From assembly GCA_052390515.1 (NCBI GenBank), contig JBQTGV010000044.1, forward strand, positions 15,619 through 79,618: a DNA stretch of 64,000 nt, read 5' to 3'. The notes beneath the pieces were generated by a model, which was not told the DNA's origin, made no database searches, and saw nothing but the letters and a program-made list of their open reading frames with translations. Of this stretch, positions 6,459 to 33,995 are shown piece after piece. Each line of letters starts with the position of its first letter. Position 1 is the first letter of the stretch. This DNA comes from Candidatus Eiseniibacteriota bacterium (GTDB taxonomy: Bacteria; ARS69). The translations under genes and the position numbers were made by a program.

Positions 6459-6542
6459 ATGATCACCCTCTTCGCGCTCGTCCTGGAACTCGTCGCTGGC
6501 AGGATCGCGGCCAACCACAATCAATCCGGGCTGGCCGGCTGA
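6459..6542 (+). CDS. Small conserved peptide (27 aa) MITLFALVLELVAGRIAANHNQSGLAG; peptide family member 1
   Basis: GGAGG lies 8 nt upstream of the ATG. It is one of six paralogs sharing the LFxLxL(D/E)hhAGRhAANHNQ core. It is divergent from the sigma gene. Confidence 0.6.
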   Translation: MITLFALVLELVAGRIAANHNQSGLAG

Positions 6543-6614
6543 TCCGTGCCTCCGGCGGGCACCCGGGTCTTGCGGTCGCGGGCCTCGATGGAAGCGGCCG
6601 CAACCCCGGGGGCG

Positions 6615-9497
6615 TCACCGCGTCGCCACCGGCCCGAGGTAGCGGTCCAGCCAGTCGAGGGTCTCGCGCACCACGTCGGGCCACGGCGGCACGTGGCCGC
6701 TGTCCAGGACCACGTGGCGCTTGTTCGCCGCCGGCGTTCCCAGCATGCGGAACAGCGGCTGCTGGTTGGTCTCGAACGGCGAGGCGAAATCGTAGCGGCC
6801 GTTGATCATCAGGACCGGGACGCGCACGCGCGGGGCGTAGTTGAACCCGTGCACCTCTTCCGGCGCCGACTCGTCCAGCCCTGCGGCGACGAGCACCAGG
6901 GTGCGCAGCCGGGGCTCCACCGCACCGACGATCGTTCCCTCTTCCGCGCCCATGCTGAGGCCATAGAACGCGATTCGCGTGCGGTCGATGTCGCTCCGAC
7001 TCTCGAGGTAGTCGATTCCGCGTCGCACGTCCAACGCGCGCTGCGTGACCACCTCGCGGAGGAAGCTGGGTCCAACGGCGTCCCGCTTGCGCCGGTGGTA
7101 GGTCTGCTGATAGGCGGGGAACAGGACCGCCCGCCCGCTCCGGACCAGGAATCCGAAATCGCGCTGACCCACTTGGTCGATCGATAAGAGCCACCGGGCA
7201 CTCCCTGGAGGAAAGTAGACGACGGTCTGGTAGGGGGGCGCCGCGTTCTTGGGCAGGAGCAGCCACGCCGGGATGCGCTCGTCGCCATAAGCCGCGGTGA
7301 AGCTGACCTTCTCGGCGCGCCAGAGCGGGGACCGGTCGTCCACCGAGTCCACCTGCGCGCCCAGCTCACCGCGGTCGTAGTCGAACATCCGCCGGTAGAT
7401 CTCGAAGATCCGATCGTCCACCGGTTGCAGACTCGAGAAGTCTCGCACCGGATCCTGGATCTCGCCGAAGCACTCATCGGAAGGGGGCTGCTCGTAAACG
7501 GCGCAGCGCAGGCCCAGGATCGGACCCCGGTCCATGGGATCGAGCGCGTCCGGCCCCGTATACAAGTACGTCGGATCGCTCCAGGCTCCGCCCAGCGTGT
7601 AGCGCCGGTCCCCGTCGGCGTTCCAGGCCCACTCGCGCACGTTGCCGGCCATGTCGTAGTTCCCGAACGCGGTGAGGCTGGGTTGGGCCTCGACGGGGCG
7701 CGGACCCTGGTCGCCGAAATTGCTGAAGCGTAGCAGGTCGGAGAAGATCGACAGGTCGGCCGCGCGGTACCAGTGATGGACGGTCGGCAGGCTCTTGCCG
7801 GCGAACTCGGCGTAGGCCGCCGCTTCGTACCAGCTCACACCGGACACCGGATGGTCTGCGTGCTCCGCGGGAAAGCTGCCCAGCTCCCAGGTCGAAGGCC
7901 CGGGCCGGCCGGTCCGGTCGCGGAACCGCGACATCGCCTCCTCGAAGGACAGAGACTCTCCGTGACTGGCGAAGGGGTGCTTCCACAGCTCGCGGCGTCG
8001 ATACCCGCCGGCGTTCACGAACGCCGCGAACTCTCGGTTGGTGACCTCGTGGCGGTCGAGCCAGTAGTCGCCGAGCACGACCGGTGGTGCCCCCCGGAAC
8101 TGGAAGGAACCTCCGGGAACGCGCACCATGTCGGCGGGTGCCGCGGCGACCGGGGTCAGGCGTACCGGAGCCTGCAGGGCCAGTCTCGACGGAGAGAAGG
8201 CCAACTCCACCGGTGCAAAGCCCGACTTCGCGAGATGGAAGCGCAACAGTGCGAACGGCAACTGCACGCCCTCGAGGGGCGTCATCCCCAGCTCTCTCCA
8301 CGCCGCGTCGGGCTCCGAGTACGGCTTGAAGGAGACCTGCGCACCGGCGGGCTCGCTGAGTAGGGTCAAAGGCGCGATCGTGATGTCGAGCCACGCCCTC
8401 TCGAAGACCGGATCGCCAGCCAGCAGGGGCTGTGCCTTCTCGGCCAGCCGGAATGCGCCGAGGCGGTCGTCCGCCTCGATCAGACGCTGGATCTCGGGCA
8501 GTGCCTCGCGCCTGGCCCAGCGTTCCTGCGCGCCCCGGTGCCACGTCCACACACCGAGCGCGGCGAGCGAGATCACCAGCAGCGCAAGGAGGGTGAGCCC
8601 CGCTGGACTGCGCAGACGTCTCGCCCACGCGGGCAGCCGGTCGGGCGTGGCGCAAGCCTCGAGGTCCGCGAGAAGCGCCACCGCCGAGGCGTAGCGCTCC
8701 GCCGGATCCTTCGCGAGACAGCGGGTCACGATCGCCTCGAGGCGTGGATCTATCTCGGGCCTCGCGCGCCGCAATGGTGTCGGCGCGGCGTTCAGGATCG
8801 CAGCCAGCAGAGCGACACCAGTGTCCCCCTCGAACGGCCGTCGGCCCGCGATCATCTCGTGGAGCGTCACTCCGAACGAAAAGACATCCGAGCGCGCGTC
8901 GACCGTGCGGCCGGTGGCTTGCTCGGGAGACATGTAGGCGGGGGTCCCGACGATCGTGTGCTCTGCGGTCGTGAGCGGGACGCTGATCGTGCTGGTCGTC
9001 GACTCCGTCCCGGGCTCGACGGACGGCGGGCGGCGGGCGAGTCCGAAGTCGAGCACCTTCACCACACCGCTGCGCGTGATCATCACGTTGGCGGGCTTGA
9101 GGTCGCGATGCACCACGCCGGCCGCGTGGGCCGCCGCCAGGCCGCGGGCCACGTCCACCGCGATCCGCAGCGCCTCGGCGAGGGGCAGCGGTCCGCGCGC
9201 GACGCGCTCGCGCAGACTCTCCCCGTCGAGACATTCCATCGCGATCCAGGTGCCGCGGCTGTCGTCTTCGCCAACGTCGTAGACCGTGACGATGTTGGGA
9301 TGGTTGAGCGACGAAAGGGTTCGCGCCTCCTGCACAAGACGCTGCGTACGCTGGGACTCGGCCACCGCGTCGGGGCGCAGCAGCTTGATGGCCACCGTCC
9401 GGCCCAGGCGCGGGTCGCGGGCACGGTAGAGCACGCCCATGCCGCCCTCACCGAGCTTGTCGGTGATCTCGAAACGACCGACGGTCTCTCCGAGCAT
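6615..9497 (-). CDS. Multidomain Ser/Thr kinase - TM - FGE-sulfatase (SUMF1-like) domain - alpha/beta-hydrolase (S9/DLH-like) domain
   Basis: N-terminal kinase motifs are present (GEGGMGVLY, HRDLKPAN, DFG, GTPAYMSPEQ), followed by a TM helix LLALLVISLAALGVW. The middle region is FGE-like (HEVTNREFAAFV...GGAWSDP). The C-terminal region is an alpha/beta hydrolase (GLSMGAEEG nucleophile elbow; ...DSGHVPP). Confidence 0.8.
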   Translation of the reverse strand: MLGETVGRFEITDKLGEGGMGVLYRARDPRLGRTVAIKLLRPDAVAESQRTQRLVQEARTLSSLNHPNIVTVYDVGEDDSRGTWIAMECLDGESLRERVARGPLPLAEALRIAVDVARGLAAAHAAGVVHRDLKPANVMITRSGVVKVLDFGLARRPPSVEPGTESTTSTISVPLTTAEHTIVGTPAYMSPEQATGRTVDARSDVFSFGVTLHEMIAGRRPFEGDTGVALLAAILNAAPTPLRRARPEIDPRLEAIVTRCLAKDPAERYASAVALLADLEACATPDRLPAWARRLRSPAGLTLLALLVISLAALGVWTWHRGAQERWARREALPEIQRLIEADDRLGAFRLAEKAQPLLAGDPVFERAWLDITIAPLTLLSEPAGAQVSFKPYSEPDAAWRELGMTPLEGVQLPFALLRFHLAKSGFAPVELAFSPSRLALQAPVRLTPVAAAPADMVRVPGGSFQFRGAPPVVLGDYWLDRHEVTNREFAAFVNAGGYRRRELWKHPFASHGESLSFEEAMSRFRDRTGRPGPSTWELGSFPAEHADHPVSGVSWYEAAAYAEFAGKSLPTVHHWYRAADLSIFSDLLRFSNFGDQGPRPVEAQPSLTAFGNYDMAGNVREWAWNADGDRRYTLGGAWSDPTYLYTGPDALDPMDRGPILGLRCAVYEQPPSDECFGEIQDPVRDFSSLQPVDDRIFEIYRRMFDYDRGELGAQVDSVDDRSPLWRAEKVSFTAAYGDERIPAWLLLPKNAAPPYQTVVYFPPGSARWLLSIDQVGQRDFGFLVRSGRAVLFPAYQQTYHRRKRDAVGPSFLREVVTQRALDVRRGIDYLESRSDIDRTRIAFYGLSMGAEEGTIVGAVEPRLRTLVLVAAGLDESAPEEVHGFNYAPRVRVPVLMINGRYDFASPFETNQQPLFRMLGTPAANKRHVVLDSGHVPPWPDVVRETLDWLDRYLGPVATR

Positions 9498-9686
9498 CGG
9501 CTGCCTCTCGGTGGTTGAGCCGTCACGCTACGGTGCTCATTCAATCCAGGTCAAGGCTGGGGCGACTCAGTCGCGCGCTCTCGCGAGCGGCGGTGGTGCT
9601 CGCGGCCTAAGCGTGGCGGCGGCCCGGTCGGGCTGGTGTACAATCCGCGCGGTCGCCGCCCCGGCGCCCGTGCCTCGGAGCCGCCC

Positions 9687-12551
9687 ATGGCCGACGAACA
9701 CTGGGATCGCGTCCGCGCGCTCTTCGAGCAGGTCCTGGAGCTGCGGGAGTCCGAGCGCACCGCGTTCCTGGACCGCGAGCTCGCCGGCGAGCCGGCGGTA
9801 CGCGCTGACCTCGTGTCTCTCCTCTCCGCGGGTCAGGCGAGCACCGAGTTCCTGGCCGGCGACTCCACCGGGGACCACGGATCGATCGGGCCGTATCGCC
9901 TCGTCAAGGTGATCGGCGAGGGCGGCTTCGGCGTGGTGTACCTCGCAGAGCAAGAGCGCCCGCTCCGCCGCCGCGTGGCGCTCAAGCTGATCAAGCGCGG
10001 GATGGACACGAAGCAGGTGATCGCGCGCTTCGAGGCGGAGCGGCAGGCGTTGGCGATGATGGACCACCCCGGAATCGCGCAAGTCTTCGACGCCGGCGAG
10101 ACCGAGATGGGGCGGCCCTACTTCGTCATGGAGTACGTGCCGGGCGTTCCCATCACGAGGTTCTGCGACGAGCAACGCCTCACCCTCCGAGACCGTCTGT
10201 CGCTGCTCGCGAACGTGTGCGACGCGGTGCAGCACGCGCACCAGAAGGGTGTGATCCACCGCGACATCAAACCGACGAACGTGGTGGTCGCGCGGCGCGA
10301 CGGAGTGGTCACACCCAAGGTGATCGACTTCGGCATCGCCAAGGCGACCACGGGCTTCCGCGGCGGGACCCTGATGACTCAGGAAGGGGCGATCGTCGGC
10401 ACGCTCGGGTACATGAGTCCGGAGCAGGCCGGCGCTCTGGACGCGCCGGTGGACACCCGTTCGGACATTTACTCGCTGGGGGTGATGCTCTACGAGCTGC
10501 TGATCGGGGCGCTGCCCTTCGACGACGGTCGCCTTCGTCAAGGCGCGCTGTCGGATGCGCTTCGCGTGATCCGGGAGGAGGATCCGCCGGCGCTGACCGT
10601 GCGGCTCGCACGCAGCGGCGGGGACGTGGCGAAGGTCGCGGAGCGGCGCTCCACGGACGCGCGCCGCCTGCTGCGGGACCTGAAGGGCGAGCTGCAGTGG
10701 ATCACGTTGCGCGCGCTGGAGAAGGATCCGGAGCGGCGCTATTCCTCGGCGGCGGAGTTCGCGGCGGACATTCGCCGGCATCTGACCGACGAGCCGGTGC
10801 TCGCCGGGGCGCCGACCGCCACCTACCGCATCCGGAAGTTCGTGCGTCGCCACCGCGGCGGGGTGGCCGCGGCGACACTGGTGCTCGCCGCGATCCTCGC
10901 CGGCGGCATCGCCTCGACCGTCAGCCTCACGCGCGCCGTCCGCGCCGAGCGCGAAACCCGACTCGAAGCGGAGTCTGCTCGACAGGTCGCAGACTTCCTG
11001 GTCGGCCTTTTCAGCGCGTCCACTCCAGACCGCGCGCGGGGCGCGGTCATCACCGCCCAGACGCTGCTCGAAGAGGGGACGCGGCGCATTCGAGACACGG
11101 TGACGGAGGATCCGCGGGTGCGTGCGCGGCTCTTGACGACGTTGGGGCACGCGAACGTGAACCTCGCTCAGTACGACCAGGGCATCGCTCTCCTGCGCGA
11201 GGCGCTGGCGGTGACCGACTCGAGCGCGTCGTCGGAACCGGTGGAGGTCGTCACTCAGCTCTACGCGCTGGCCACCGGCTTGCTGACATCCGGCCGGGGT
11301 GCCGACGACGAAACCGGCGCGACTCTGGACCGCGCGCTGGCGATCTTGCGTGATTCCGGCGCGGACCGGCCCGACCTGCTGTCGGCCTGTCTGCGCGGAA
11401 AGGGGTCGTGGTTCAACGAACGCGGCGAACTGGCGCCTGCCGAGTCGCTGCTCACGCTGGCCATCCGCACGGCGGAGTCGGTCTCCCCTCCGGATACCGC
11501 GAAGCTCGTCCGCATGTACAGCACGCGGGCGAACATCGCGCACCGGCAGTTCCACCTCGAGGACGCGGAGCGCCATTACTTGCACGCGCTCGAACTGGCG
11601 GAGAAGAGCGGGCAGCCGAGCTGGTCGATCAGCATGCACCGGCGGCTGGCCTCGGTCTACGGCGCGCTCGGCGATCCGGAGAAGGCGATTCGACACGCCG
11701 AAGAGGGAGTGCGGCTCGCACGGCAGATCTATTCGCCCGACCATCCCAACCTGGCTGACGCGCTGAGCGGCCTCGCGTCGGCACTCGCCTCGAAGGGTGA
11801 TGACTCGCAAGCGATCACCGTGAGCGAGGAGGTCGTCCGCATCACGCGCCAGAGCGGGAGATCGTTCGACCTCGCGCTGGAGCTGAACAGCCTGGGGCTT
11901 CTGTACCGCAGCAGCGACCAGCCGGAGCGGGCCGTGGCCTGCGCCGAGGAATCCTGGCGAATTCGCAACGAGACCCTCGGCGCGGGAAACGCGCGGACGG
12001 CGGAGTCGCTGGCCAACCTGGCGCGGAGCCTGTTCGCGGCGGGACAGACCGCGCGCGCGGACTCTTCGTTCCAGGCGGCCATCGCGGTGTTCGATCGGCT
12101 GGACGCGACGGGAGTGTTCACCGCGGTGGCCTACGCGAGCTTCGCGAACCTTTGTCGCGACACGAAGCGCCTCGCCCGCGCCGATACACTCTACGCTCAC
12201 GCCCAGGCCCTATTGGACTCCACGAATGCCGGGCTCCGACCCTACGCGGGCGAGTGCCTCATGGACCACGGGTACCTCCGCTCGCTGCAGGGTCGCCACG
12301 CGGAGGCGGAGGCCATGATCGCCGCCGGCTTCCCGTTGCGGCGAGGGGAGACGGCGGAGACGGATCCGGGGCTCGGACAGTGGTACCTGATCTGGGCCGC
12401 CTCGCGCGCAGCCGCCGGCGACGTGGACGGGGCCCTCGGAAAACTCCGGGAAGCGGCCCGCTGCGGTGTCACCTCGGAGGATGCGGAGACGCTCTCGGAG
12501 CTGGCCGCGCTCCGCTCCCGCGCCGACTATCCGCTGGAAGACTCCCGCTGA
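9687..12551 (+). CDS. Ser/Thr protein kinase with TM and TPR domain (module 2 paralog)
   Basis: It has the same architecture and the same N-terminal 'W.RV.ALF...ER.AFLDRE...LRA.L..LL' extension as the other paralogs. HRDIKPTN, DFG and GTLGYMSPEQ are present. Confidence 0.85.
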   Translation: MADEHWDRVRALFEQVLELRESERTAFLDRELAGEPAVRADLVSLLSAGQASTEFLAGDSTGDHGSIGPYRLVKVIGEGGFGVVYLAEQERPLRRRVALKLIKRGMDTKQVIARFEAERQALAMMDHPGIAQVFDAGETEMGRPYFVMEYVPGVPITRFCDEQRLTLRDRLSLLANVCDAVQHAHQKGVIHRDIKPTNVVVARRDGVVTPKVIDFGIAKATTGFRGGTLMTQEGAIVGTLGYMSPEQAGALDAPVDTRSDIYSLGVMLYELLIGALPFDDGRLRQGALSDALRVIREEDPPALTVRLARSGGDVAKVAERRSTDARRLLRDLKGELQWITLRALEKDPERRYSSAAEFAADIRRHLTDEPVLAGAPTATYRIRKFVRRHRGGVAAATLVLAAILAGGIASTVSLTRAVRAERETRLEAESARQVADFLVGLFSASTPDRARGAVITAQTLLEEGTRRIRDTVTEDPRVRARLLTTLGHANVNLAQYDQGIALLREALAVTDSSASSEPVEVVTQLYALATGLLTSGRGADDETGATLDRALAILRDSGADRPDLLSACLRGKGSWFNERGELAPAESLLTLAIRTAESVSPPDTAKLVRMYSTRANIAHRQFHLEDAERHYLHALELAEKSGQPSWSISMHRRLASVYGALGDPEKAIRHAEEGVRLARQIYSPDHPNLADALSGLASALASKGDDSQAITVSEEVVRITRQSGRSFDLALELNSLGLLYRSSDQPERAVACAEESWRIRNETLGAGNARTAESLANLARSLFAAGQTARADSSFQAAIAVFDRLDATGVFTAVAYASFANLCRDTKRLARADTLYAHAQALLDSTNAGLRPYAGECLMDHGYLRSLQGRHAEAEAMIAAGFPLRRGETAETDPGLGQWYLIWAASRAAAGDVDGALGKLREAARCGVTSEDAETLSELAALRSRADYPLEDSR

Positions 12552-13018
12552 CTCCTGGCCAGCCACCACTCGCGGAATTCGCGGAGCCGCGGCAGCGATT
12601 CTCGATCCTTGACTCGCCCCGTGGCCTCCTTGCTCCGGATGATGTCGTCGATGTGGCAGACCGGCAGCCCCTCCACCACCACCGACCGGGCGAGCGCGTC
12701 TGCGAAGGACTCGATTCCGTCCGGGGCGAACACCAAGTCCAGATCGAACGGTCCCTGGCGAAGCTGGACGAAGTCTTTGCCGCGCTCGATTTCGGCCCGC
12801 TCGCGCTCGTTCAGCTCGAAGCCCAGCGCACCGAGCGCGCGGACCGCTGCCGCTCCATTCGGCGGCGTCTTGTCGAGATAGAGGTCGGCGTCCTGGGTCG
12901 TGTCCGGGAATCCGAGTATGACGGCACCCGCCTTGCCGATGAACAGGTAGCGAACACCGAAGCGCCCGAACGCGGAAGCGATCTCCTGCGCCTGCCGGTA
13001 CTCAAACCGCGCGGCCAT
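12527..13018 (-). CDS. Hypothetical nucleotidyltransferase-like protein whose C-terminal ~20 aa resemble the ECF-sigma C-terminal tail (possible sigma gene remnant fusion)
   Basis: The C-terminal 'EFREWWLARSQRESSSG' can be compared with the sigma 'LRDWAFARAWLYGELSGG'. It occupies the same 25-nt convergent overlap with the kinase 3' end that the sigma genes occupy. Confidence 0.4.
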   Translation of the reverse strand: MAARFEYRQAQEIASAFGRFGVRYLFIGKAGAVILGFPDTTQDADLYLDKTPPNGAAAVRALGALGFELNERERAEIERGKDFVQLRQGPFDLDLVFAPDGIESFADALARSVVVEGLPVCHIDDIIRSKEATGRVKDRESLPRLREFREWWLARSQRESSSG

Positions 13019-13220
13019 ATCCGAGCCAGACCGGCAAGTTCTCCTCGCACCATCGGCGGTAATCGGCCATGGTGTCGAACGAGCGGTACCTCGCGTCGTC
13101 GAGAACGGGCTTGTAGGTGCGGATGAACGCGTACTTCAGCCGCAGATCCAGCGGGCGCCGCGCAGCCGCCTCGAAGTCCTGAGTCCACTCGCGCCTCACG
13201 GACGCCGGTATCTCATCCAT
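13002..13220 (-). CDS. Small hypothetical protein (72 aa), co-oriented and overlapping with the downstream NTase-like ORF
   Basis: An ORF with an internal ATG at 13220 overlaps the next gene by ~17 nt, so the two are likely a two-gene operon. No recognisable motifs were found. Confidence 0.3.
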   Translation of the reverse strand: MDEIPASVRREWTQDFEAAARRPLDLRLKYAFIRTYKPVLDDARYRSFDTMADYRRWCEENLPVWLGYGRAV

Positions 13221-13473
13221 GCGTTCAACATAGCATCCCGTTGCGGGGTGAGCCACGACCGCCGAGCTTCGGGCTGTGGCGTTGTGAGCCACCTCCGCGA
13301 CATCGAGCGACAGCTTGGGCTGCGCGACGGCCCGGAGCCCGTCGTAGACCTGGGCGATGAAGGCGTCGGAACTCCCCGGAGGGGTGCCGGAGGCGTGAAC
13401 AGGGGGCTCGCCGCGGGAATCGAGCCCGGATGGGAACGGGCCGCTGCCGTGGCTCGACGGGAGCTTCCGGCAA

Positions 13474-13501
13474 GGGGACGCATGTCACGTGGCGGCCCAC
13501 T
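13474..13501 (+). promoter_or_regulatory. Seventh copy of the TGTCAC-N17-CGCAC motif, immediately followed by a 13-nt remnant (CACAACCAGAACC) of a peptide-gene 3' end
   Basis: The spacing is exactly 17 nt. 'cacaaccagaacc' is identical to the NHNQN-coding segment of peptide gene 2. No intact peptide ORF follows. Confidence 0.4.
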
Positions 13502-13589
13502 CCGGCGCACAACCAGAACCGGGTCGGGGCAGCAGGTCATGGTGATCTCCTCAGACCCTCGAAGGGAGAAACGGACGATGGTCACCCTG

Positions 13590-14002: not shown

Positions 14003-14101
14003 TCGAGGGGACCGACGGCGGCGCGGCGGCCATCTGACGAGTGGTTCCGCGCTCGCCGGCCACGCTCCCCCCGGACCATCCGCTGATGGACTCGCTGTGA
14101 G

Positions 14102-15207: not shown

Positions 15208-15265
15208 GTTGCTATCATATGCGATAAACCACCCACGTCCAGGGCCCCCTGGGGTCGAGGGCGCC

Positions 15266-15835: not shown

Positions 15836-15891
15836 CGGGGGCCATGGTACGCGGGCGGGACTCCCGGCTCAACGGGGCAACCGGCCCGGGG

Positions 15892-15919
15892 TGTCATGTG
15901 CCGGCCCGTTCCGGCGCAT
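15892..15919 (+). promoter_or_regulatory. TGTCAT-N17-CGCAT candidate ECF-type promoter (copy 2)
   Basis: The conserved bipartite motif lies 31 nt upstream of the peptide 2 ATG. Confidence 0.55.
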
Positions 15920-15950
15920 GGAGGGCTGTCACCCAGGAGGGGTTCCCCAG

Positions 15951-26488: not shown

Positions 26489-29347
26489 ATGAACGGGGAA
26501 CAGTGGCGCCGGCTGAAGGACCTCTTCGTCGACCTCCAGGGAATGCCGGAGGGCGAGCGAAGCGCTCATCTCGACCGGGAGGCCGCCGGTGATCCGGAGG
26601 TGCGCGCCGAGCTCCATCGATTGCTCGCCGTCGACAGATTCGCCGCCGACTTCCTCGCCGCCGCACACTCCGCTTCCAGCCACGGCTCCATCGGACCCTA
26701 CCGGCTCCTCGAGATCCTGGGCGAAGGCGGCTTCGGCGTGGTGTATCTGGCCGAGCAGGAGCGCCCCATCCGCCGCCGCGTCGCGCTCAAGCTGATCAAG
26801 CCGGGGATGGACACGAAGCAGGTGATCGCCCGCTTCGAGGCCGAGCGGCAAGCCCTGGCTCTCATGGACCATCCCGGCATCGCCCAGGTTCACGACGCGG
26901 GCGAAACGGAGGCGGGCCGGCCGTACTTCGTCATGGAGTACGTGCCCGGGGAGCCCATCACCACGTTTTGCGACCGCGAGCGGCTGCGCATCCCCGAACG
27001 GCTCGAGCTCTTCCTCGAGGTCTGCGACGCGATCCAGCACGCCCACCACAAGAGCGTGATCCACCGGGACATCAAACCCTCCAACGTGCTCGTCGCGCTG
27101 CGCGACGGTGTGCCCGCGCCGAAGGTGATCGACTTCGGCATCGTCAAGGCGACCACGGCGGGGGCGGCCGGTCAAACCCTGATGACGCGCGAGGGGATGA
27201 TCGTCGGGACGCTGGGATACATGAGCCCGGAGCAGGCCGGGGCGGCCGAGACGGTGGACACGCGCTCCGACATCTACTCGCTGGGGGCTCTTCTGTACGA
27301 GCTGCTGGCGGGCTCACCGCCCTTCGACGCCGACCGGCTGAAGAGCGCCGCGCTCTCGGATGCCGTGCGCGTCGTCCGGGAAGAAGAGCCGCCGGCGCTC
27401 GCTGCGCGGGTGGCGCGAGGCGGGGAGGAGGAAGCGGCGGTGGTCGCCGAGCGGCGCTCCGCGGATGCCCGGCACCTTCTCCGCGAGCTGAAGGGCGAGC
27501 TGCAGTGGATCACGCTGCGCGCGCTGGAGAAGGACCCGAGCCGGCGTTACACGTCGGCGGCGGAGCTGGCGGCCGACATCCGCCGGCACCTCGCGAACGA
27601 GCCCGTGCTGGCCGTTGCTCCGAGCACGGCCTACCGGATGCGCAAGTTCGCCCGGAGGCACCGGGTCGGCGTCGTCGCTGCGACCGTCGTGCTGGCCACG
27701 ATCGTGGTCGGGGGAATCGCCGCGGGAATCGGCTTCGGCCGGGCGGTTCGTGCCGAGCACAAGGCACAACGCGAAGCGGAATCCCTACAGCGCGTCACCG
27801 ACTTTCTGGTCGAGTTGTTTCGCACGTCGAGCCCGGATCAATCCCGCGGAGAGACCATCACCGCGCGGACCCTCCTCGACGAGGGCACACGTCGCATCGA
27901 GGCCGACCTCGAGGCGGACGCGCACATCCGTGCGCGCCTGCTGGCGACGCTGGGCGACGCACATGTGAACCTGGCGCTCTACGATGACGGCCTTCGCCTG
28001 CTGCGCGAAGCGGTGGCGACGAGCGAAGCTGCGGAACCGCGCGACGACCTGGAGATCGCCGAGCAGCTTCGCCGATTGGCCTACGGCCTCAGAATGGCGG
28101 GACAGCTCGACAGCGTCGGGGTCCTCCTCGATCGCGCGATGGAGCTCGGACGCGACGCTGGGGCGCGCTCTCGCTGGATGGCGGGGTGCCTGTCGAACAA
28201 GGCTTCCTGGCTGAACAGCCTGGGCCAGCTCGCGCCGGCAGATTCGCTCGTGACGCTGGCGATCGAGATGGGTGAGTCCGAGCCGGAGCCGGATCGCCCT
28301 CAGCTCATGCGCATGTACTACACGAAGGGAAACATCGCCCACCGTCGGTTCGAGCTGCCGGATGCCGAGCGTCACTACCTCCGGGCGCTGGAGCTTTGCG
28401 AAAGCGGGGGAACCGAACCGACCTGGTCGGCGATGCTCCATCGCAGCCTGGCGTCCCTCTACGCCGCCCTCGGCGATCCGGAGAGGGCGGTGAGTCATGC
28501 GGAGCAGGGCGTGCGTCTCGCCCGGCGGCTCTATGCCTCCGACCATCCCAACCTCGCCTACGCGCTGGGCGGCCACGCGGCGGCCCTGGCCGGCAAAGGA
28601 GATTACTCGGGGGCGCTCGCTGTGCGGGAGGAGGCGCTGGGCATTTGGCGTGCGACCGGGGCGCAGACCGACCTCGCCCGCGAGCTGAACAGCGTAGGAA
28701 TCCTGCACCGGGCTGCCGGTCAACTCGATCTCGCTATCGCCTGCACGGAAGAAGCGTGCGCGCTGTACCGCGCGTCATTCGGTCAGGAAAGCGGCCGAAC
28801 CGCGGAGGCGGTCGCCAACCTGGCGCGGCTGTATGCGGAGAAGGGGCAGCTCCATCGCGCCGACTCGACGTACCGCGCAGCCGTTCCCGTGTTCGATCGG
28901 CTGCGCGACGGAAGCATCTTCGCCACCTATGCCTCCATGGGCTTCGCCAACGTGTGTCGGGATCTCGGGCGCTCGGCTCAGGCCGAGAGCCTCTATTCGC
29001 GGGTGGAGTCCGCGCTGGACTCCACCGAGGCGGGCCTGCGGGGCTATTTCGGCGAGTGCCTGGTGGATCACGCTTACCTGCGGTCGCGGCAGGGGAGGCA
29101 CGACGAGGCGGAGTCCATGATGCGGATCGGGCTCCCCATGCAACGCGGCGACGCCGCCGAGGATGCTCGAAGTCTGGGTGCCGCGTACCTCACGTGGGCA
29201 GCGGCGCGCGCGCTGGCCGGGGACGCCGCCGGCGCCATCGAGAAGCTCCAGCAGGCCGCCCGCTGCGGCGTGACGGTGCAGGACGCCGCCCGATATCCCG
29301 AGCTCGCCGCGCTCCCGGCCGACTACCCCCTGGAGAGCTCTCCGTAG
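26489..29347 (+). CDS. Ser/Thr protein kinase with TM and TPR domain (paralog 4)
   Basis: It has the conserved N-terminal extension, the kinase motifs, a TM helix and TPR repeats. It starts 16 nt after the NHL gene stop. Confidence 0.85.
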   Translation: MNGEQWRRLKDLFVDLQGMPEGERSAHLDREAAGDPEVRAELHRLLAVDRFAADFLAAAHSASSHGSIGPYRLLEILGEGGFGVVYLAEQERPIRRRVALKLIKPGMDTKQVIARFEAERQALALMDHPGIAQVHDAGETEAGRPYFVMEYVPGEPITTFCDRERLRIPERLELFLEVCDAIQHAHHKSVIHRDIKPSNVLVALRDGVPAPKVIDFGIVKATTAGAAGQTLMTREGMIVGTLGYMSPEQAGAAETVDTRSDIYSLGALLYELLAGSPPFDADRLKSAALSDAVRVVREEEPPALAARVARGGEEEAAVVAERRSADARHLLRELKGELQWITLRALEKDPSRRYTSAAELAADIRRHLANEPVLAVAPSTAYRMRKFARRHRVGVVAATVVLATIVVGGIAAGIGFGRAVRAEHKAQREAESLQRVTDFLVELFRTSSPDQSRGETITARTLLDEGTRRIEADLEADAHIRARLLATLGDAHVNLALYDDGLRLLREAVATSEAAEPRDDLEIAEQLRRLAYGLRMAGQLDSVGVLLDRAMELGRDAGARSRWMAGCLSNKASWLNSLGQLAPADSLVTLAIEMGESEPEPDRPQLMRMYYTKGNIAHRRFELPDAERHYLRALELCESGGTEPTWSAMLHRSLASLYAALGDPERAVSHAEQGVRLARRLYASDHPNLAYALGGHAAALAGKGDYSGALAVREEALGIWRATGAQTDLARELNSVGILHRAAGQLDLAIACTEEACALYRASFGQESGRTAEAVANLARLYAEKGQLHRADSTYRAAVPVFDRLRDGSIFATYASMGFANVCRDLGRSAQAESLYSRVESALDSTEAGLRGYFGECLVDHAYLRSRQGRHDEAESMMRIGLPMQRGDAAEDARSLGAAYLTWAAARALAGDAAGAIEKLQQAARCGVTVQDAARYPELAALPADYPLESSP

Positions 29348-29895
29348 AGCCAGGTCCTGGCGAAGGCCCAATCCCGGAGCACGGTACGCTTCGACGCTTC
29401 CAGCGTCTCCGCCACCTCCTCGACGCTCAGGCCCGCGTAGAAGCGCAGCCGAACGATCTGCGCCGCCCGCTCGTCCTGCACCGCCAGCCGCTCGATGGCA
29501 CGGTCCAGGGCGAGGATCGTCTCCGGGTCCCTGTCGTCGGCGATCGCGGCGACCTCCTCGAGGTCGAGCGACACCTTGGGCGCCGGTCGGCCCTCGGAAT
29601 CGCCGCCGCGCTTGACTCGCCGCCGGGCGCGGGCCCGGTCGATGAGGATCCGCCGCATGGCCTCGGCCGCCGCGGCGAAGAACTCCGCGCGGCCCTGCCA
29701 ATCGCCTGCCCCCTCGGGGCGAAGGCGCAGGTAGGCCTCGTGCACGAGCTCGGTGGTCTGGAGGCTCTGGCCCGCGTTCTCGCCCCGCATCCGCGCGTGC
29801 GCGATCGTGCGGAGCTCGTCGTAGACGCGGGCGAAGAACGCGTCGGAACCGGCCGGGCCGGGCTCGTCGGGTTGGGCAGGGGGCTCGGTGGACAT
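29323..29895 (-). CDS. ECF sigma factor, kinase-associated type (paralog 4)
   Basis: It has the same motifs as the other sigma paralogs. It has a 25-nt convergent overlap with kinase 4 and is divergent from kinase 5. Confidence 0.85.
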   Translation of the reverse strand: MSTEPPAQPDEPGPAGSDAFFARVYDELRTIAHARMRGENAGQSLQTTELVHEAYLRLRPEGAGDWQGRAEFFAAAAEAMRRILIDRARARRRVKRGGDSEGRPAPKVSLDLEEVAAIADDRDPETILALDRAIERLAVQDERAAQIVRLRFYAGLSVEEVAETLEASKRTVLRDWAFARTWLYGELSRG

Positions 29896-30079: not shown

Positions 30080-32944
30080 ATGAACCGGGAGCAGTGGAGC
30101 CGACTCCGGGACCTCTACGCCGAGGCCGACGAGATGCCGGAGGGCGAGCGTCGCGCCTTCCTGGACCGTGAGGCGCGGGACGACCCCGAGCTCCGCGCCG
30201 AGCTGGACCGGCTCTTCGCCGCCGGCGCGGCCGCGACGACCTTCTTCGCACCATCCCCATCCGACGCCGGGCAGGGCTCGATCGGGCCGTACCGTCTCCT
30301 CCGCATCCTCGGCGAGGGCGGCTTCGGTGTCGTGTACCTCGCCGAGCAGGAGCGGCCCATCCGGCGCCGCGTGGCGCTCAAGCTGATCAAGCCGGGCATG
30401 GACACGAGGCAGGTGATCGCCCGCTTCCAGGCGGAGCGTCAGGCGCTCGCGGTGATGGACCACCCCGGCATCGCGCAGGTGCACGACGCCGGCGAGACGG
30501 AGACGGGCCGTCCCTACTTCGTCATGGAGTACGTGCCCGGCGCTCCGGTCACGGCGTTCTGCGACCGCGAGCGGCTGAGCGTACGCCAGCGGCTGGAGCT
30601 CTTCCTGCACATTTGTGACGCCATTCAGCACGCGCACCAGAAGGGAGTCATCCACCGGGACATCAAGCCGTCCAACGTGCTCGTCGCACTGCGGGACGGC
30701 GTGGCGGCACCGAAGGTGATCGACTTCGGCATCGTCAAGGCGACGACGGAGTTCGCAGCGGCGGGCACCCTGATGACCCGCGAGGGCATGATCGTCGGGA
30801 CGCTGGGGTACATGAGCCCGGAGCAGGCCGGGTCGTCGGAGAGCGTGGACACGCGCTCGGACATCTACTCGCTGGGGGTGCTGCTCTACGAGCTGCTGAC
30901 CGGCGCGCTGCCATTCGACGCGGAGCGGCTGCGCCAGGCGGCGCTGTCGGACGCCGTGCGGGTCATCCGCGAGGAGGAGCCGCCCGCCCTGGCCGCGAGA
31001 CTGTCCCGGAGTCGCGAGGCGTCCGCTGCCGCGGCCGAGCGGCGCTCGACCGACGTGCGCCGGCTCCTGCGCGACCTGAAGGGCGAGCTCTCCTGGATTA
31101 CGCTGCGCGCGACCGAGAAGGACCCGAACCGGCGCTACGCGTCGGCCGCGGAGCTGGCGGCGGACGTCCGGCGGCACCTCGACAACGAGCCCGTGCTCGC
31201 CGGCGCGCCGAGCACCATGTACAGACTGCGCAAGTACGCGCGGCGGCACCGCGCCGGCGTGATCGCCGCGGTGGTCGTGCTGGCCTCCATCGTGGCCGGC
31301 GGCGTCGCCGCGGGAATCGGTTTCCGCCGAGCGGTGCTGGCCGAGCAGGACGCGCGCCGCGAGGCGGAGTCGTCGAAGCGCGTCTCCGATTTCCTGGTGG
31401 AGCTGTTCCGCGCATCCAGCCCGGACGTGTCACAAGGCGAAGTGCTCACCGCGCGCATGCTCCTGGACGAGGGCACGCGCCGGATCGAGAGCGCGCTCGA
31501 GGAGGACCCGCTGGTGCGCGCTCGGGTCCTCGACGCGATGGGGGCGTCGTACGTGAACCTGGGCCACTTCGAGGAGGGGATCCGCGTCCGGCGCGAGGCG
31601 GTGACCGCCGCCGAGTCGGTCGAGCCGCGGGACGACGTGGAGGTCTCCAAACGGCTCGTCGGTCTCGCTCTGGCGCTGACCATGGGCGGCCAGCGCAACG
31701 ACGCGCGCCCGCTTCTCGAGCGGGCGAACGCGCTCTGCCAGGCCTCGGCGGACGCCGAACCGGATGTGCGCGCGGCGTGCCTCCAGCAGTTGGGACAGTG
31801 GTGGAACGAAGAGGGCGAGACCACCAAGGCAGACTCCCTGCTCACGCAGGCGCTCGAGATCGCGGAGTCCGCGGCCGAACCGAACGCCGTGCGGCTCATG
31901 CGCATCTGTTCGAGCAAGGCGAACATCGCTCACCGCCGGCTCGACCTGCAGGAGGCGGAGCGGCACTACCGGAGGGTGCTGGCCCTCGCGCGGGAGACGG
32001 AGACCCCTTCCGCCGCCATCAGCGCCCATCGCGGTCTGGCGTCGATGTTCGCAACGCTCGACGAGCCGGACAGCGCGCTGGCGCACGCCGAGGAGGGCGT
32101 CCGCCTCGCGCGGCAGATCTACGCGCCCGACAATCCCCAGCTCGCGACTGCGCTCGGCGGTCAGGCGAACGCGCTCACCGCCCGCGGTCGGTACCCCGAG
32201 GCGATCGCCGTCCTGGAAGAGGCGCTGGCCATCCTGCGGACTAAGGGGGCGCCGGAGCTTGCGGCCGGCGCGGCAAACCTGGCCGGCTCCGTCTACTTGG
32301 CGGACGGCCAGGTCGACTCCGCGATCGCCCGCACCGAAGAAGCCCATCGGATCTTCGTCGGGCAGAAGGGTCCGGAGAACGCCCGCGTGGCGGAGGTCGT
32401 GGCCAACCTGGGGCGCTGCTACGCCGCAGCGGGGCAGACCCAGCGGGCCGACGCGTCCTTCCGCGATGCCATCGCCGTGTTCGACCGAGTCGGGGACGAG
32501 ACCATCCTCCCGCCGCTGGCATGGATGAGCTACGCGAACCTCTGCCGCGACGACGGGCGGATGGAGCGGGCGGATTCGTTGTACGCGCGCGCGGCTGCCG
32601 CCCTGGACTCGACGAACGCCGGGATGCGGTCGTACGCCTGGGAGTGCCTGATGGACTGGGGCCGCCTGCGGTCTCTTCAAGACAGGCACGACGAGGCGGA
32701 GGCGCTGCTGCGGGGGAGCTACTCCATCAGGCGGAGCAGCGCGGAGGGCGACACCGATCCCTCCCTGGGCGGTGTGTACCTCGTGTGGGCGGCGGCCCGA
32801 TCGCGCGCCGGGGATGTCGAAGGCGCCGTCGAGAAGCTCCGCCTGGCCGCGGCGAGTGAGGTGGACCCGAGGGACGTCGAGGGCTTCCCGGAGCTCGCCG
32901 CCCTCCGGGACCATCCGGAGTACCCGTTCCGAGGAACTCGCTGA
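30080..32944 (+). CDS. Ser/Thr protein kinase with TM and TPR domain (paralog 5)
   Basis: It has the conserved N-terminal extension, the kinase motifs, a TM helix and TPR repeats. Confidence 0.85.
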   Translation: MNREQWSRLRDLYAEADEMPEGERRAFLDREARDDPELRAELDRLFAAGAAATTFFAPSPSDAGQGSIGPYRLLRILGEGGFGVVYLAEQERPIRRRVALKLIKPGMDTRQVIARFQAERQALAVMDHPGIAQVHDAGETETGRPYFVMEYVPGAPVTAFCDRERLSVRQRLELFLHICDAIQHAHQKGVIHRDIKPSNVLVALRDGVAAPKVIDFGIVKATTEFAAAGTLMTREGMIVGTLGYMSPEQAGSSESVDTRSDIYSLGVLLYELLTGALPFDAERLRQAALSDAVRVIREEEPPALAARLSRSREASAAAAERRSTDVRRLLRDLKGELSWITLRATEKDPNRRYASAAELAADVRRHLDNEPVLAGAPSTMYRLRKYARRHRAGVIAAVVVLASIVAGGVAAGIGFRRAVLAEQDARREAESSKRVSDFLVELFRASSPDVSQGEVLTARMLLDEGTRRIESALEEDPLVRARVLDAMGASYVNLGHFEEGIRVRREAVTAAESVEPRDDVEVSKRLVGLALALTMGGQRNDARPLLERANALCQASADAEPDVRAACLQQLGQWWNEEGETTKADSLLTQALEIAESAAEPNAVRLMRICSSKANIAHRRLDLQEAERHYRRVLALARETETPSAAISAHRGLASMFATLDEPDSALAHAEEGVRLARQIYAPDNPQLATALGGQANALTARGRYPEAIAVLEEALAILRTKGAPELAAGAANLAGSVYLADGQVDSAIARTEEAHRIFVGQKGPENARVAEVVANLGRCYAAAGQTQRADASFRDAIAVFDRVGDETILPPLAWMSYANLCRDDGRMERADSLYARAAAALDSTNAGMRSYAWECLMDWGRLRSLQDRHDEAEALLRGSYSIRRSSAEGDTDPSLGGVYLVWAAARSRAGDVEGAVEKLRLAAASEVDPRDVEGFPELAALRDHPEYPFRGTR

Positions 32945-32955
32945 GGCACGCGAGA

Positions 32956-33537
32956 CTAGGCGCCGTCCCCGGAGAGCTCTCCGTAGAGCCACGCCCGGGC
33001 GAAGGCCCAGTCGCGGAGGACGGTCCGGGTCGACGCGCCCATCGCCTCGGCCACCTCCTCGACGGAGAGCCCTCCGTAGAAGCGCAGCCGCACCACCTTC
33101 GCCGCGCGCTCGTCCTTCTCCGCCAGGCGCTCGATGGCGCGGTCGACGGCCAGGATGGTCTCCGGATCGCCGTCGTCGGCGAGCGCGGCCACCTCTTCCA
33201 GGTTGAGCGAGACCCTCGGCGGGGGCCGGCCTTCCGCGTCGCCGCCGCGCTTCATCCGCCCCTTCGCGCGGGCCCGCTCGATCAGGATCCGGCGCATGGC
33301 CTCGGCGGCGGCGGAGAAGAAGTGGCCGCGGTTGTCCCAGCGGCCGCCGCCCGGCGGGCGAAGGCGCAGGTAGGCCTCGTGCACCAGCTCGGTGGATTGG
33401 AGGGTCTGCCCGGTGCGTTCGCCCTGCATCCGGGCGTGCGCGATGGCCCGGAGCTCGTCGTAGACCTGGGCGAAGAACGTGTCCGAGCCCTTCGGGCCGG
33501 GTCCGGGGGGGTCGGGGGCGGGCCGTTCCTCGGTCAT
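32956..33537 (-). CDS. ECF sigma factor, kinase-associated type (paralog 5)
   Basis: The sequence MTEERPAPD...ELVHEAYLRL...DWAFARAWLYGELSGDGA is present. It is convergent with kinase 5 without overlap. Confidence 0.8.
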   Translation of the reverse strand: MTEERPAPDPPGPGPKGSDTFFAQVYDELRAIAHARMQGERTGQTLQSTELVHEAYLRLRPPGGGRWDNRGHFFSAAAEAMRRILIERARAKGRMKRGGDAEGRPPPRVSLNLEEVAALADDGDPETILAVDRAIERLAEKDERAAKVVRLRFYGGLSVEEVAEAMGASTRTVLRDWAFARAWLYGELSGDGA

Positions 33538-33625
33538 GGAGCCGATGCTAACGGGCCTCCCGGAGTGTCTCAACCGGCTTCTCGAAAGCCGCCGTCCTCC
33601 GCGTCCGCCCTGCCCTTCCGGCCCG

Positions 33626-33653
33626 CTGTCACCCTCCGCCCGCCTCCGTCGCA
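33626..33653 (+). promoter_or_regulatory. TGTCAC-N17-CGCAT candidate ECF-type promoter (copy 5)
   Basis: The conserved motif lies 60 nt upstream of peptide 5. Confidence 0.55.
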
Positions 33654-33713
33654 TGCAGCCGCGACCGTCACCGTGCAGGCGGCGGACGAACCAATCACCC
33701 GGAGGGGAAGGCC

Positions 33714-33797
33714 ATGATCACCCTGTTCACGCTGGTTCTGGACCTGGTTCTGGGCAGGATCGCTGCCAACCATAACCAGACCGTTCGGTCCGCGTAG
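33714..33797 (+). CDS. Small conserved peptide (27 aa) MITLFTLVLDLVLGRIAANHNQTVRSA; family member 5
   Basis: GGAGGGGAAGG lies upstream. It is a paralog of the other peptides. Confidence 0.6.
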   Translation: MITLFTLVLDLVLGRIAANHNQTVRSA

Positions 33798-33843
33798 CTC
33801 GGGAGTTTCCGCGGCGGGCGAGGGACCTTCGCCCGCCGCCCCG

Positions 33844-33871
33844 TGTCACCTCCGGGGTGACTTCGGCGCAG
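33844..33871 (+). promoter_or_regulatory. TGTCAC-N17-CGCAG candidate ECF-type promoter (copy 6)
   Basis: The conserved motif lies 31 nt upstream of peptide 6. Confidence 0.55.
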
Positions 33872-33902
33872 GGAGGATCAGAACCTCTGCCGGAGGAACC
33901 CG

Positions 33903-33995
33903 ATGCCGACCCTCTTCGCCCTCTTGCTCGATCTCGTCGCCGGCAGGCGCGCCGCCAACCATGGTCAGACGCGGCTCTTCGAGGAAAGGGCCTGA
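33903..33995 (+). CDS. Small conserved peptide (30 aa) MPTLFALLLDLVAGRRAANHGQTRLFEERA; family member 6
   Basis: GGAGG lies upstream. Its stop overlaps the start of the NHL lipoprotein gene (TGATG), so the two are translationally coupled. Confidence 0.6.
   Translation: MPTLFALLLDLVAGRRAANHGQTRLFEERA

Follow-up and report, generated by a model that had tools for sequence, protein, structure and literature searches.

A 64-kb stretch of DNA from a Candidatus Eiseniibacteriota bacterium (contig JBQTGV010000044.1; G+C content, 70.3%), hereafter called the window, was analysed, and all positions are given in the numbering of this window. It holds exactly six mini open reading frames (ORFs) encoding what we term NHNQT peptides, a family name coined in this analysis. 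The six lie on the plus strand, encode peptides of 26-30 residues each, and stand among genes for extracytoplasmic function (ECF) sigma factors, Ser/Thr kinases, secreted DUF5122 beta-propellers, NHL-repeat proteins, and a small tetratricopeptide repeat (TPR) protein (Table 1; copy n denotes peptide gene n). The remainder of the window consists of ordinary chromosomal genes (Feo, TamA/TamB, and UvrD), the UvrD gene product being 100% identical to a protein from a Candidatus Eiseniibacteriota metagenome-assembled genome.

An initial annotation had described the six ORFs as paralogous peptide genes, and all of them were recovered on the plus strand with the same starts. A back-translated pattern, L-F-x-L-x-x-[DE]-x-[VI]-x-G-[RK]-x-x-x-N-H, matched the window six times as compared to 0.00 matches expected from 100 shuffles, and a profile built from 15 hydrophobic-leader peptides of four genomes (described below) singled out the same six ORFs among all stop-to-stop frames of the window (E 1e-15 to 1e-17; next ORF, E 1.2). 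The Shine-Dalgarno (SD) sequence GGAGG annotated ahead of every ATG is present in 6/6 copies, at a spacing of 6-10 nucleotides (nt) instead of the 7-12 nt reported. Residues M1, L4, F5, L7, G14, N19, and H20 are invariant among the six copies. The motif NHNQ, which had also been taken as invariant, is not, with NHNA in copy 3 and NHGQ in copy 6. The overlap of copy 6 with its downstream NHL-repeat gene is real, and the surroundings are as annotated, with five ECF sigmas, six kinases, and DUF5122/NHL genes, except that copy 1 has no gene downstream.

Table 1. Peptide genes, upstream blocks, and associated genes of the 64-kb window (aa, amino acids; TM, transmembrane; E values of blocks from nhmmer).
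Feature	Position	Strand	Description
Peptide gene 1	6459-6542	+	27 aa, MITLFALVLELVAGRIAANHNQSGLAG; divergent from sigma 5737-6309, convergent with kinase 6615-9497; no gene downstream
Peptide gene 2	15951-16034	+	27 aa, MLTLFVLVLELVAGRLVGNHNQNLIRA; divergent from sigma 15266-15835; ca. 250 nt upstream of kinase 16287-19151
Peptide gene 3	19845-19925	+	26 aa, MMLFVLLVDFVAGKIAINHNATRIGG; divergent from sigma 19127-19699; stop 3 nt before beta-propeller ATG
Peptide gene 4	22613-22696	+	27 aa, MIALFALVLDIIAGRLAANHNQTAVSG; heads a DUF5122 propeller/NHL/kinase string; stop 12 nt before next ATG
Peptide gene 5	33714-33797	+	27 aa, MITLFTLVLDLVLGRIAANHNQTVRSA; divergent from sigma 32956-33537; followed by the promoter block of copy 6
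Peptide gene 6	33903-33995	+	30 aa, MPTLFALLLDLVAGRRAANHGQTRLFEERA; stop overlaps NHL-repeat gene start (TGATG)
Upstream block, copy 1	6365-6405	+	GTGGCACC-N16-CGCAC; E 5.7e-5
Upstream block, copy 2	15890-15927	+	GTGTCATG...TTCCGGCGCATGGAGGG; E 2.8e-7
Upstream block, copy 3	19757-19794	+	E 3.7e-5
Upstream block, copy 4	22529-22569	+	E 8.4e-8
Upstream block, copy 5	33625-33664	+	E 3.1e-4
Upstream block, copy 6	33841-33880	+	E 1.4e-6
Weak seventh block copy	13483-13509	+	E 0.023; precedes a ..PAHNQNRVG.. remnant and part of an NHL-like ORF
Small kinesin-light-chain-like TPR protein	2065-2805	+	246 aa, cytoplasmic; 378 bits on the partner model
ECF sigma 1	5737-6309	-	PF07638; TIGR02999 177 bits against a cut-off of 126; LQSTELVHEAY
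ECF sigma 2	15266-15835	-	PF07638
ECF sigma 3	19127-19699	-	PF07638; start inferred by homology
ECF sigma 4	29323-29895	-	PF07638; start inferred; not faced by a peptide gene
ECF sigma 5	32956-33537	-	PF07638; start inferred
Ser/Thr kinase	2876-5761	+	One TM helix, periplasmic TPR; 3' end overlaps sigma 1 by 25 nt
Ser/Thr kinase	6615-9497	-	One TM helix; FGE-sulfatase (SUMF1-like) and alpha/beta-hydrolase (PETase-like) ectodomain, no TPRs; peptide gene 1 converges on it
Ser/Thr kinase	9687-12551	+	One TM helix, periplasmic TPR domain
Ser/Thr kinase	16287-19151	+	One TM helix, periplasmic TPR domain
Ser/Thr kinase	26489-29347	+	One TM helix, periplasmic TPR domain
Ser/Thr kinase	30080-32944	+	One TM helix, periplasmic TPR domain
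DUF5122 beta-propeller	19929-22430	+	Secreted; FlgD_ig / Por_Secre_tail; downstream of copy 3
DUF5122 beta-propeller	22709-25216	+	Secreted; FlgD_ig; downstream of copy 4
NHL-repeat protein	25262-26473	+	Between DUF5122 propeller 22709-25216 and kinase 26489-29347
NHL-repeat protein	33995-35209	+	Signal-like N-terminus; downstream of copy 6

The comparisons made here confirmed that the six ORFs are genuine protein-coding genes under constraint at the peptide level. The aligned DNA is conserved from the ATG onwards until the similarity tails off a few codons short of the stop codon, and little is conserved between the upstream block described below and the SD site. Values of dN/dS among the six paralogues were mostly 0.1-0.3. 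Nine further hydrophobic-leader peptides were found in three other genomes (L117, L118, and L163; up to 74% G+C; related loci are designated by L numbers), and all nine extra copies retain both the peptide and the upstream block. When these 15 peptides were compared, non-synonymous differences (pN) were fewer than synonymous ones (pS) in 101/105 pairs, and the entropy at codon positions 1, 2, and 3 was 14.5, 9.1, and 19.6, respectively, so that the third position varied most and the second least. The two comparisons for which the initial annotation had called, retention of the ORF in related loci and Ka/Ks, thus both favour a real peptide. No Rfam family was found in the window, and mRNA folding around the peptide genes was no better than that of shuffled sequences (z = +0.1, -0.1, +1.8, and -1.2). 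The conserved Arg ahead of the core of the peptides is encoded by AGG or AGA in 22/29 cases, as compared to 5.5% AGR among the Arg codons of the window genes. Pausing at a rare AGG codon is the less likely cause of this bias, toggling between Lys and Arg by single transitions (AAR to AGR and back) being the simpler explanation.

The common promoter-like motif noticed earlier upstream of the six copies proved to be a real element, a 38-nt block of the form TGTCAC-N17-CGCA. The same block (cCGTGTCACCTgCCGGccGgTTCCGGCGCAtGgAGGGG) precedes 15/15 hydrophobic-leader peptides of the window, L117, L118, and L163, where it is placed 25-55 nt before the SD site, and a part of its "spacer" (GGTTCCGG) is likewise conserved. 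An nhmmer model of the block recovered every block copy plus a few extra sites, the strongest of which predicted an uncalled peptide gene, L118 3097-3180 (MITLFAIALEFVLGKLSANHNSTPLRG). This NHNST-variant gene and its block (L118 3007-3180) lie upstream of a sigma gene on the same strand. Another match, L118 6876-6908, is directly upstream of a DUF5122 propeller gene without a peptide, and the block, thus, marks a small regulon and not peptide genes alone. A weaker match occurs in the sigma-kinase spacer of L163. Near the weak seventh copy of the window, a block remnant and a peptide-gene tail (13430-14002) stand alongside an AbiEii/helix-turn-helix (HTH)-type toxin-antitoxin pair (14102-15285), as in L117, and this region is probably a decayed peptide module near an inserted toxin-antitoxin cassette.

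The experimentally defined ECF41 promoter, TGTCACA-n16-CGTC (PMC3426412), shares with the block the TGTCAC -35-like element and its spacing to a CG-initiated -10-like element. It differs in that the -10-like element of the block is CGCA(T) and part of the block spacer is conserved; besides, the window sigmas are not of the ECF41 type, as they have no fused C-terminal domain and match TIGR02999. By position and geometry, the neighbouring ECF43-like sigmas may read the block. Two other readings of the block were rejected. A sigma-54 promoter does not fit because its invariant GG is broken in 13/14 aligned blocks (mostly TGTCAC), only copy 1 of the window having TGGCAC. Nor does a GGAAC-type promoter of the sigma gene on the reverse strand, because the spacing is unfit and some blocks have no adjacent sigma, both in the window (copies 4 and 6) and in L117 and L118. 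Scans for sigma-70 promoters and intrinsic terminators around copies 1, 2, 5, and 6 returned nothing on the plus strand.

All five window sigmas match PF07638 (E 1e-46 to 1e-49) and carry LQ[ST]TELVHEAY, the ECF43 phospho-threonine site in region 2.2, for which the consensus QTTA is given in PMC13147305; an exact look-up of the sigma protein returned no record. In each of the six kinases, a single predicted TM helix follows the Pkinase domain and leads to a C-terminal region, which is a TPR region in five kinases and an FGE-sulfatase region in one; this topology places the TPR region in the periplasm. According to the same source, sigmas of this type become active once phosphorylated by a partner membrane Ser/Thr kinase, a mechanism worked out recently, and the signal sensed by the periplasmic TPR region of a kinase with the PknS architecture is stated there to be unknown (PMC13147305). 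The convergent 3' ends of kinase (plus strand) and sigma (minus strand) genes overlap by exactly 25 nt at 5737-5761, 19127-19151, and 29323-29347 of the window and at 1978-2002 and 5497-5521 of L117; an overlap of such constancy is uncommon and may point to expression of the two partners that is coupled or mutually interfering.

The NHNQT family extends far beyond the window. In the initial annotation, the peptide was not recognised as any named family. In accordance with this, Pfam and NCBIfam searches with the six peptides gave no match at E ≤ 10, those with ten relatives yielded noise only, and a literature search for the peptide motif yielded nothing relevant. At E ≤ 1e-3, a profile search of 1.84 billion representative proteins retrieved 99 proteins; a further search, by word index and with the peptides doubled, retrieved 34 proteins, and the tight DNA pattern A-G-[RK]-[LI]-A-A-N-H-N-Q-[ST] retrieved 28 metagenome loci, 28/28 of which were true members. 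Many of these pattern-found loci encode uncalled peptides of 20-22 residues, such as MKTKTRVKAGRLAANHNQTVR. The pooled family of at least 144 peptides, from Eiseniibacteriota, Planctomycetota, and other soil and sediment lineages, gave 321 units, one to six per peptide, with the consensus V-K-T-x-V-K-A-G-[RK]-[LI]-A-A-N-H-N-Q-T-[LV]-[VL]-R. Thr or Ser follows NHNQ in 89% of the units, and the peptide usually ends 5-6 residues past NHN, as NHNQTxxx[GAR]. Gene callers miss much of the family, most members being uncalled peptides of 20-30 residues, while a profile of the peptide or of the block finds copies reliably.

In the window peptides, a leader half, M-x-T-L-F-x-L-V-L-[DE]-L-V-A-G, is followed by a core half of 12-16 residues, [RK]-h-A-A-N-H-N-Q-[TS]-x-x-x-[GA]. 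The leader differs by lineage: it is short and hydrophobic in the window, basic and beta-strand-like (MK(T/V)KTxVKAG) or acidic (..EE(I/V)E.VIAP) in other lineages, and a full Sec signal peptide in still others. The Sec-type signal peptides end in ALA|K, VLA|K, or AVA|K just at the start of the conserved core (L158, Candidatus Eisenbacteria; L162; proteins P0031 and P0061). The basic-leader type occurs in clusters with HlyD, an ATP-binding cassette (ABC) transporter that has a C39 peptidase with its catalytic Cys motif, and a second ABC transporter (L154 and L160), where several precursor genes may stand in a row. The C39-peptidase ABC exporter was present in L154/L146 and L160 and in none of the 64-kb window, L117, L118, and L163. 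Since interchangeable export leaders precede one constant core, the family product is probably an exported peptide of ca. 12-16 residues (ca. 13), an example of a core 13-mer being RIAANHNQSGLAG; this is the strongest argument for export. The 14-residue leader of the window itself may likewise direct export. The window peptides show A-G|R with L/V at -4 and V/L at -7, while the usual acidic residue at -8 and Leu at -12 are absent. The functional unit is probably the C-terminal half and not the hydrophobic N-terminal one, a point absent from the initial annotation, which had also missed the wider family and the small TPR partner at 2065-2805.

Three further roles of the core were considered and rejected: an N-x-T glycosylation sequon, which is broken in several members; peptide amidation, considered because of a C-terminal Gly, an NHL/PAL-like neighbour, and a Cu2_monoox_C protein in L154, as only ca. 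one-fifth of the members end in Gly and the window has no PHM-like gene; and an intein-like H-N cleavage, which found no consistent support. A GT4 glycosyltransferase gene (779-2068) overlaps the start of the small TPR gene of the window (ATGA), and most peptides carry N-x-T. A link between the glycosyltransferase and the peptides is doubtful, since none accompanies the TPR gene in L117, L118, and L163.

An all-versus-all comparison of the neighbouring ORFs revealed that one TPR protein recurs directly downstream of the peptide across all leader types. These partners have 240-400 residues, the motif YHNLGGLEHARGR, and 35-70% identity between loci, and the window protein is 70% identical to its L117 counterpart. 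The stop codon of the peptide gene is often only 1-15 nt from the TPR start. On a hidden Markov model of the partner, the partners scored 245-574 bits and the kinase TPR regions 66-133 bits, while 0/116 control loci, which were chance matches to a loose back-translated pattern (ca. 36 bits), reached 100 bits. Where at least 900 nt of sequence follow the peptide gene, about half of the distinct peptides have the partner directly behind them (three cases corrected by eye), as compared to none in the 116 control loci. In the reverse direction, 4/5 loci found from TPR homologues (three of them independent; L158, L159, and L160/L161) have peptides 0.1-1.7 kb upstream, and L162 has a Sec-type peptide 9.5 kb from the TPR homologue. 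The partner has no signal peptide, no TM segment, and no HTH domain, and matches only TPR_12/TPR_10/TPR_NPHP3/TPR_MalT in Pfam. Among solved structures (PDB), it is closest to the TPR domains with which kinesin light chains bind cargo peptides (E 1e-30), and its best NCBIfam match is NF040586 (FxSxx_TPR), at 101.7 bits against a cut-off of 300. In P0188, an NCBI protein of 411 aa, the small TPR gene is fused with a downstream acidic-leader peptide gene (..KLEERIAPALTVNHNETLL..) in the reverse gene order; it looks like a frameshifted gene call, and the fusion indicates that the TPR gene and the peptide are adjacent for the acidic-leader type as well. In an AlphaFold2 model of P0188, the TPR part was confident, and the motif had a predicted local distance difference test score (pLDDT) of only ca. 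50-66.

Sigma/kinase pairs flank family peptides in seven independent loci (the window, L117, L118, L123, L131, L151, and L163), which bears out the annotated tie of the peptide genes to ECF sigma/kinase modules. L163 is an isolated module among unrelated genes: sigma and kinase-TPR genes lie on one strand, the block runs divergent from the sigma together with the genes of an uncalled peptide and of the small TPR protein, and a second peptide (peptide A) converges on the 3' end of the kinase gene, as copy 1 does in the window. The TPR partner is more tightly associated with the peptide than the sigma/kinase pair, since no such pair lies within 10 kb in L154, L158, and L160. In loci without the ECF sigma/kinase pair (L158, L159, L160, and L161), a Sigma54_activat gene stands beside the exporter/peptide cluster, in L158 ca. 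8 kb upstream of the peptides, which suggests a different regulatory input in those lineages.

We consider it possible, with a probability of ca. 40%, that the window ORFs are driven by the sigmas and encode exported peptides, and that the core of these peptides binds kinesin-light-chain-like TPR modules in a feedback or cell-cell signalling loop resembling Rap-Phr. Each peptide gene would be transcribed from its own ECF-type promoter, TGTCAC-N17-CGCA, by the neighbouring ECF43-like sigmas. The N-terminal half would serve as an export/processing leader that is cut after a small-residue pair (A-G; A-x-A in relatives), and the C-terminal half would be the functional product. This core peptide may reach the periplasm or the outside and bind a TPR module there or after re-uptake, the candidates being the periplasmic TPR sensor of the kinase and the small cytoplasmic TPR protein. 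The loop would also switch on the co-transcribed secreted beta-propeller proteins. More specifically, the NHNQT peptides may tentatively be regarded as self-made exported signals of diderm bacteria, sensed by both the periplasmic TPR region of the kinase and the small cytoplasmic TPR receptor and feeding a phosphorylation-activated sigma. The initial annotation had offered four functions; of these, the signalling ligand and the RiPP-like precursor (RiPP, ribosomally synthesised and post-translationally modified peptide) are nearest to the new evidence, since the varied export leaders of relatives, the clusters with C39-peptidase ABC exporters, the multi-unit precursors, and the small TPR partner conserved with the peptide favour an exported and processed peptide with a connection to TPR proteins. 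The lack of a hydrophobic segment in most relatives weakens a membrane-active role. Against a purely cis-acting leader stand the copies without a downstream gene, which in two genomes converge on a kinase gene, the tandem units, and the absence of structured RNA.

Several observations weigh against a signalling loop of this kind. The 14-residue leader of the window has no basic n-region and contains an acidic residue, and is neither a canonical Sec nor a double-glycine leader. No exporter or oligopeptide importer was seen in the 64-kb window, and no Opp genes were seen in the examined loci. The steadiest TPR partner is cytoplasmic, and an exported ligand would need re-import unless the TPR protein acts before export. 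The core is near-identical across phyla, which is unusual, as pheromones normally diversify. The block is assigned to the neighbouring sigmas by position and geometry only. The sigma/kinase pair is missing from the vicinity of the peptides in the three loci mentioned above, and these genomes are rich in sigma/kinase pairs, which lessens the weight of their adjacency.

Among known systems, one close in organisation is Rap-Phr and the RRNPP family of Firmicutes (PMC3601965, PMC7055314), in which, as here, a small peptide gene adjoins and often overlaps a cytoplasmic TPR gene. As proposed for the NHNQT peptides, the pro-peptide has an N-terminal export signal and its active part at the C-terminal end, and the mature RRNPP signal is re-imported by Opp. 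One Phr pentapeptide, ARNQT, loosely resembles A-N-H-N-Q-T. However, the TPR partner of the NHNQT peptides is of the kinesin-light-chain type (TPR_12/TPR_10), with no homology to Rap, NprR, PlcR, or PrgX, which usually have an HTH or Rap N-terminal bundle, and no HTH, and the peptide gene is upstream of the TPR gene, whereas Phr-type genes are downstream. The NHNQT core is nearly invariant across phyla, whereas RRNPP signals are strain-specific; NHNQT peptides also occur in diderm hosts and are linked with an ECF sigma and a Hanks kinase, and no Opp importer was seen. A literature search on Gram-negative RRNPP-like systems turned up only Gram-positive RRNPP systems among the papers listed.

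To our knowledge, no small peptide gene or small TPR protein is known for the ECF43/Hanks kinase systems EcfP-PknT of Vibrio and EcfK-PknS of Xanthomonas. The window modules share with these systems a TIGR02999/PF07638 sigma with a Q-[ST]-T site and a kinase whose single TM helix separates the cytoplasmic kinase domain from a periplasmic TPR region (PMC13147305). They differ in that the consulted passages of that source describe no small peptide gene or small TPR protein, and in that the window packs several modules, with five sigmas and six kinases, into 35 kb, together with peptide genes that have a conserved promoter. In kind, the NHNQT system resembles exported-peptide/TPR-receptor systems, and it is a member of none of them, the features tested for RRNPP, NHLP/Nif11, RiPP, and FxSxx failing on homology. 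Neither the peptide family nor the block was found in the curated libraries and the searched literature, and the same holds for the module of four parts, in which an ECF43-like sigma and a TM kinase with periplasmic TPR are combined with an NHNQT peptide and a small TPR protein.

The alternative that survives best, although we regard it as unlikely, is that the peptides are natural products which the cell secretes, as RiPPs or in an unmodified, bacteriocin-like form. The NHNQT units would be cores or recognition sequences of multi-core precursors, cut by a C39-peptidase ABC exporter and possibly modified, and would act on other cells and not as a self-signal, with the TPR protein serving in immunity, as a scaffold, or in recognition. 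The presence of one to six tandem units per precursor fits this idea, as do the precursor arrays beside HlyD, C39-ABC, and a second ABC transporter in L154 and L160, the best NCBIfam match of which is the NHLP bacteriocin export cassette; the three-gene cassette is a point of likeness to the peptidase-containing ABC transporters of double-glycine-leader peptides. The exporter scores, however, were far under the NCBIfam cut-offs (e.g. 167 against 853 bits). Like the precursors with double-glycine leaders (ComC-ComAB, class II bacteriocins, and NHLP/Nif11), NHNQT peptides are short pre-peptides with an A-G pair and a hydrophobic position -4 (also -7 where the leader is hydrophobic or acidic), and the acidic leaders resemble the ends of NHLP/Nif11 leaders (P0014 and P0020). 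In contrast, the six peptides and ten relatives gave no match to the NHLP (TIGR03793), Nif11 (TIGR03798), or bacteriocin leader models; the window leader has only 14 residues and neither the acidic -8 nor Leu -12, the window has no exporter, and other relatives use Sec signals. The stretch from KAG to NHNQT is variable and at times Cys-rich (P0026 and P0055), whereas the conserved part is the presumed core, and the cores of RiPPs and bacteriocins are normally the variable part.

A further parallel is the FxSxx-COOH RiPP system (NF040586), whose small peptides have a motif at the very C-terminus and are accompanied by a TPR protein of the kinesin-light-chain kind; in NCBIfam, the NHNQT partner matches this TPR protein best. 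The system differs in the motif, in the score far below the cut-off, and in the length of the TPR protein (246 aa against an 830-position model), and no radical SAM/SPASM maturase was found in the window or the annotated related loci. A Cu2_monoox_C protein is present in the L154 cluster, whereas Pfam revealed no conserved maturase (radical SAM, YcaO, LanM/KC, ATP-grasp, P450, or methyltransferase) across the examined loci or the window. Finally, the window genes stand in sigma/kinase signalling modules and not in biosynthetic clusters.

It was also considered, and judged decidedly unlikely, that the peptides act in cis, A-G-[RK]-h-A-A-N-H-N-Q-T stalling the ribosome to set downstream translation and the N-terminal export signal relieving the arrest, either by monitoring export (as SecM, VemP, and MifM) or by sensing a metabolite (as TnaC and SpeFL). 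Like these arrest peptides, the NHNQT ORFs are tiny and often coupled to the gene behind them, as with copies 3, 4, and 6 and in L117, L123, L150, and L163, where the stop and start codons overlap or are separated by 1-15 nt; in most members, 5-6 residues remain between the end of the motif and the stop, and some relatives pair an N-terminal export signal with the motif. With the ribosome as partner, a near-identity across phyla would be expected. This explanation is opposed by stand-alone copies in two genomes, copy 1 and peptide A of L163, which have no downstream gene and converge on a kinase gene, and by copy 5, which has only another promoter and peptide behind it. Tandem arrays of 2-6 units and arrays of separate genes are not known for arrest peptides, NHNQT genes have separate promoters, and no stable or conserved mRNA structure masks the downstream start (z -1.2 to +1.8). 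The association with C39-peptidase ABC exporters would be left unexplained, and we know of no arrest motif (SecM, VemP, MifM, or RAPP-type) that the NHNQT motif resembles.

A third alternative holds that the peptide stays inside the cell or in the membrane and modulates the kinase/sigma pair, as MgrB does PhoQ, or is a pseudo-substrate or substrate of the kinase via Q-T-h-h, with the cytoplasmic TPR protein as its binding partner. The cytoplasmic location of the TPR partner and its translational coupling to the peptide would suit such a role. The prevalence of Thr or Ser after NHNQ recalls the sigma phospho-site LQ[ST]TELV, whereas the Q-T-L-V register is unlike Q-T-T-A-L-V. The hydrophobic N-terminal half of the window peptides is followed by Arg or Lys, whereas its 12-14 residues, which include Asp/Glu, are too short for a normal TM helix. 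Most members have no hydrophobic segment, and others have cleavable Sec signals or C39-ABC exporters that would place the core outside the cytoplasm; we, therefore, consider this role highly improbable. The idea that the ORFs are not genes and that a repeated DNA element (promoter plus spacer) happens to contain a chance open frame, although the copies are short, adjoin a conserved non-coding block, and lie in a 70% G+C genome full of spurious ORFs, is already refuted by the conservation from ATG to near the stop, the excess of third-position variation, the pN<pS pairs, the SD sites throughout, and homologous peptides in other phyla (53-74% G+C) with wholly different codons, leaders, and promoters.

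If the signalling loop proposed above is true, it names the long-unknown input of kinase-coupled ECF sigmas, which are numerous in Planctomycetota, Acidobacteriota, Gemmatimonadota-like and related phyla, and carries Rap-Phr-like signalling far beyond the Firmicutes. It might then be the first peptide input described for these sigmas, a claim to which we give a substantial, although less than even, chance. A peptide gene facing a sigma gene, an apparent sigma promoter, and a TPR link of the kinase-sensor type together provide a concrete and testable input candidate. If the peptides are an arrest peptide or a natural product instead, a nine-residue motif that crosses phyla without a known relative is a new entry in either catalogue.

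Some additional features of the related loci were noted. Downstream of the TPR gene in L160 and L159, a region of ca. 7 kb (~11200-18000) has no called genes and only short ORFs and is possibly an rRNA operon. In L131, a di-haem peroxidase-like protein is encoded between the kinase and the peptide. Secreted beta-propellers adjoin the peptides or the TPR partner in other lineages as well (L131 1339-6578, L158 11188-15641, and L162 6265-8781), and the propeller types in these loci are SBBP/DUF7948, HZS_alpha, DUF5122, NHL, and CBM96 with FlgD_ig.

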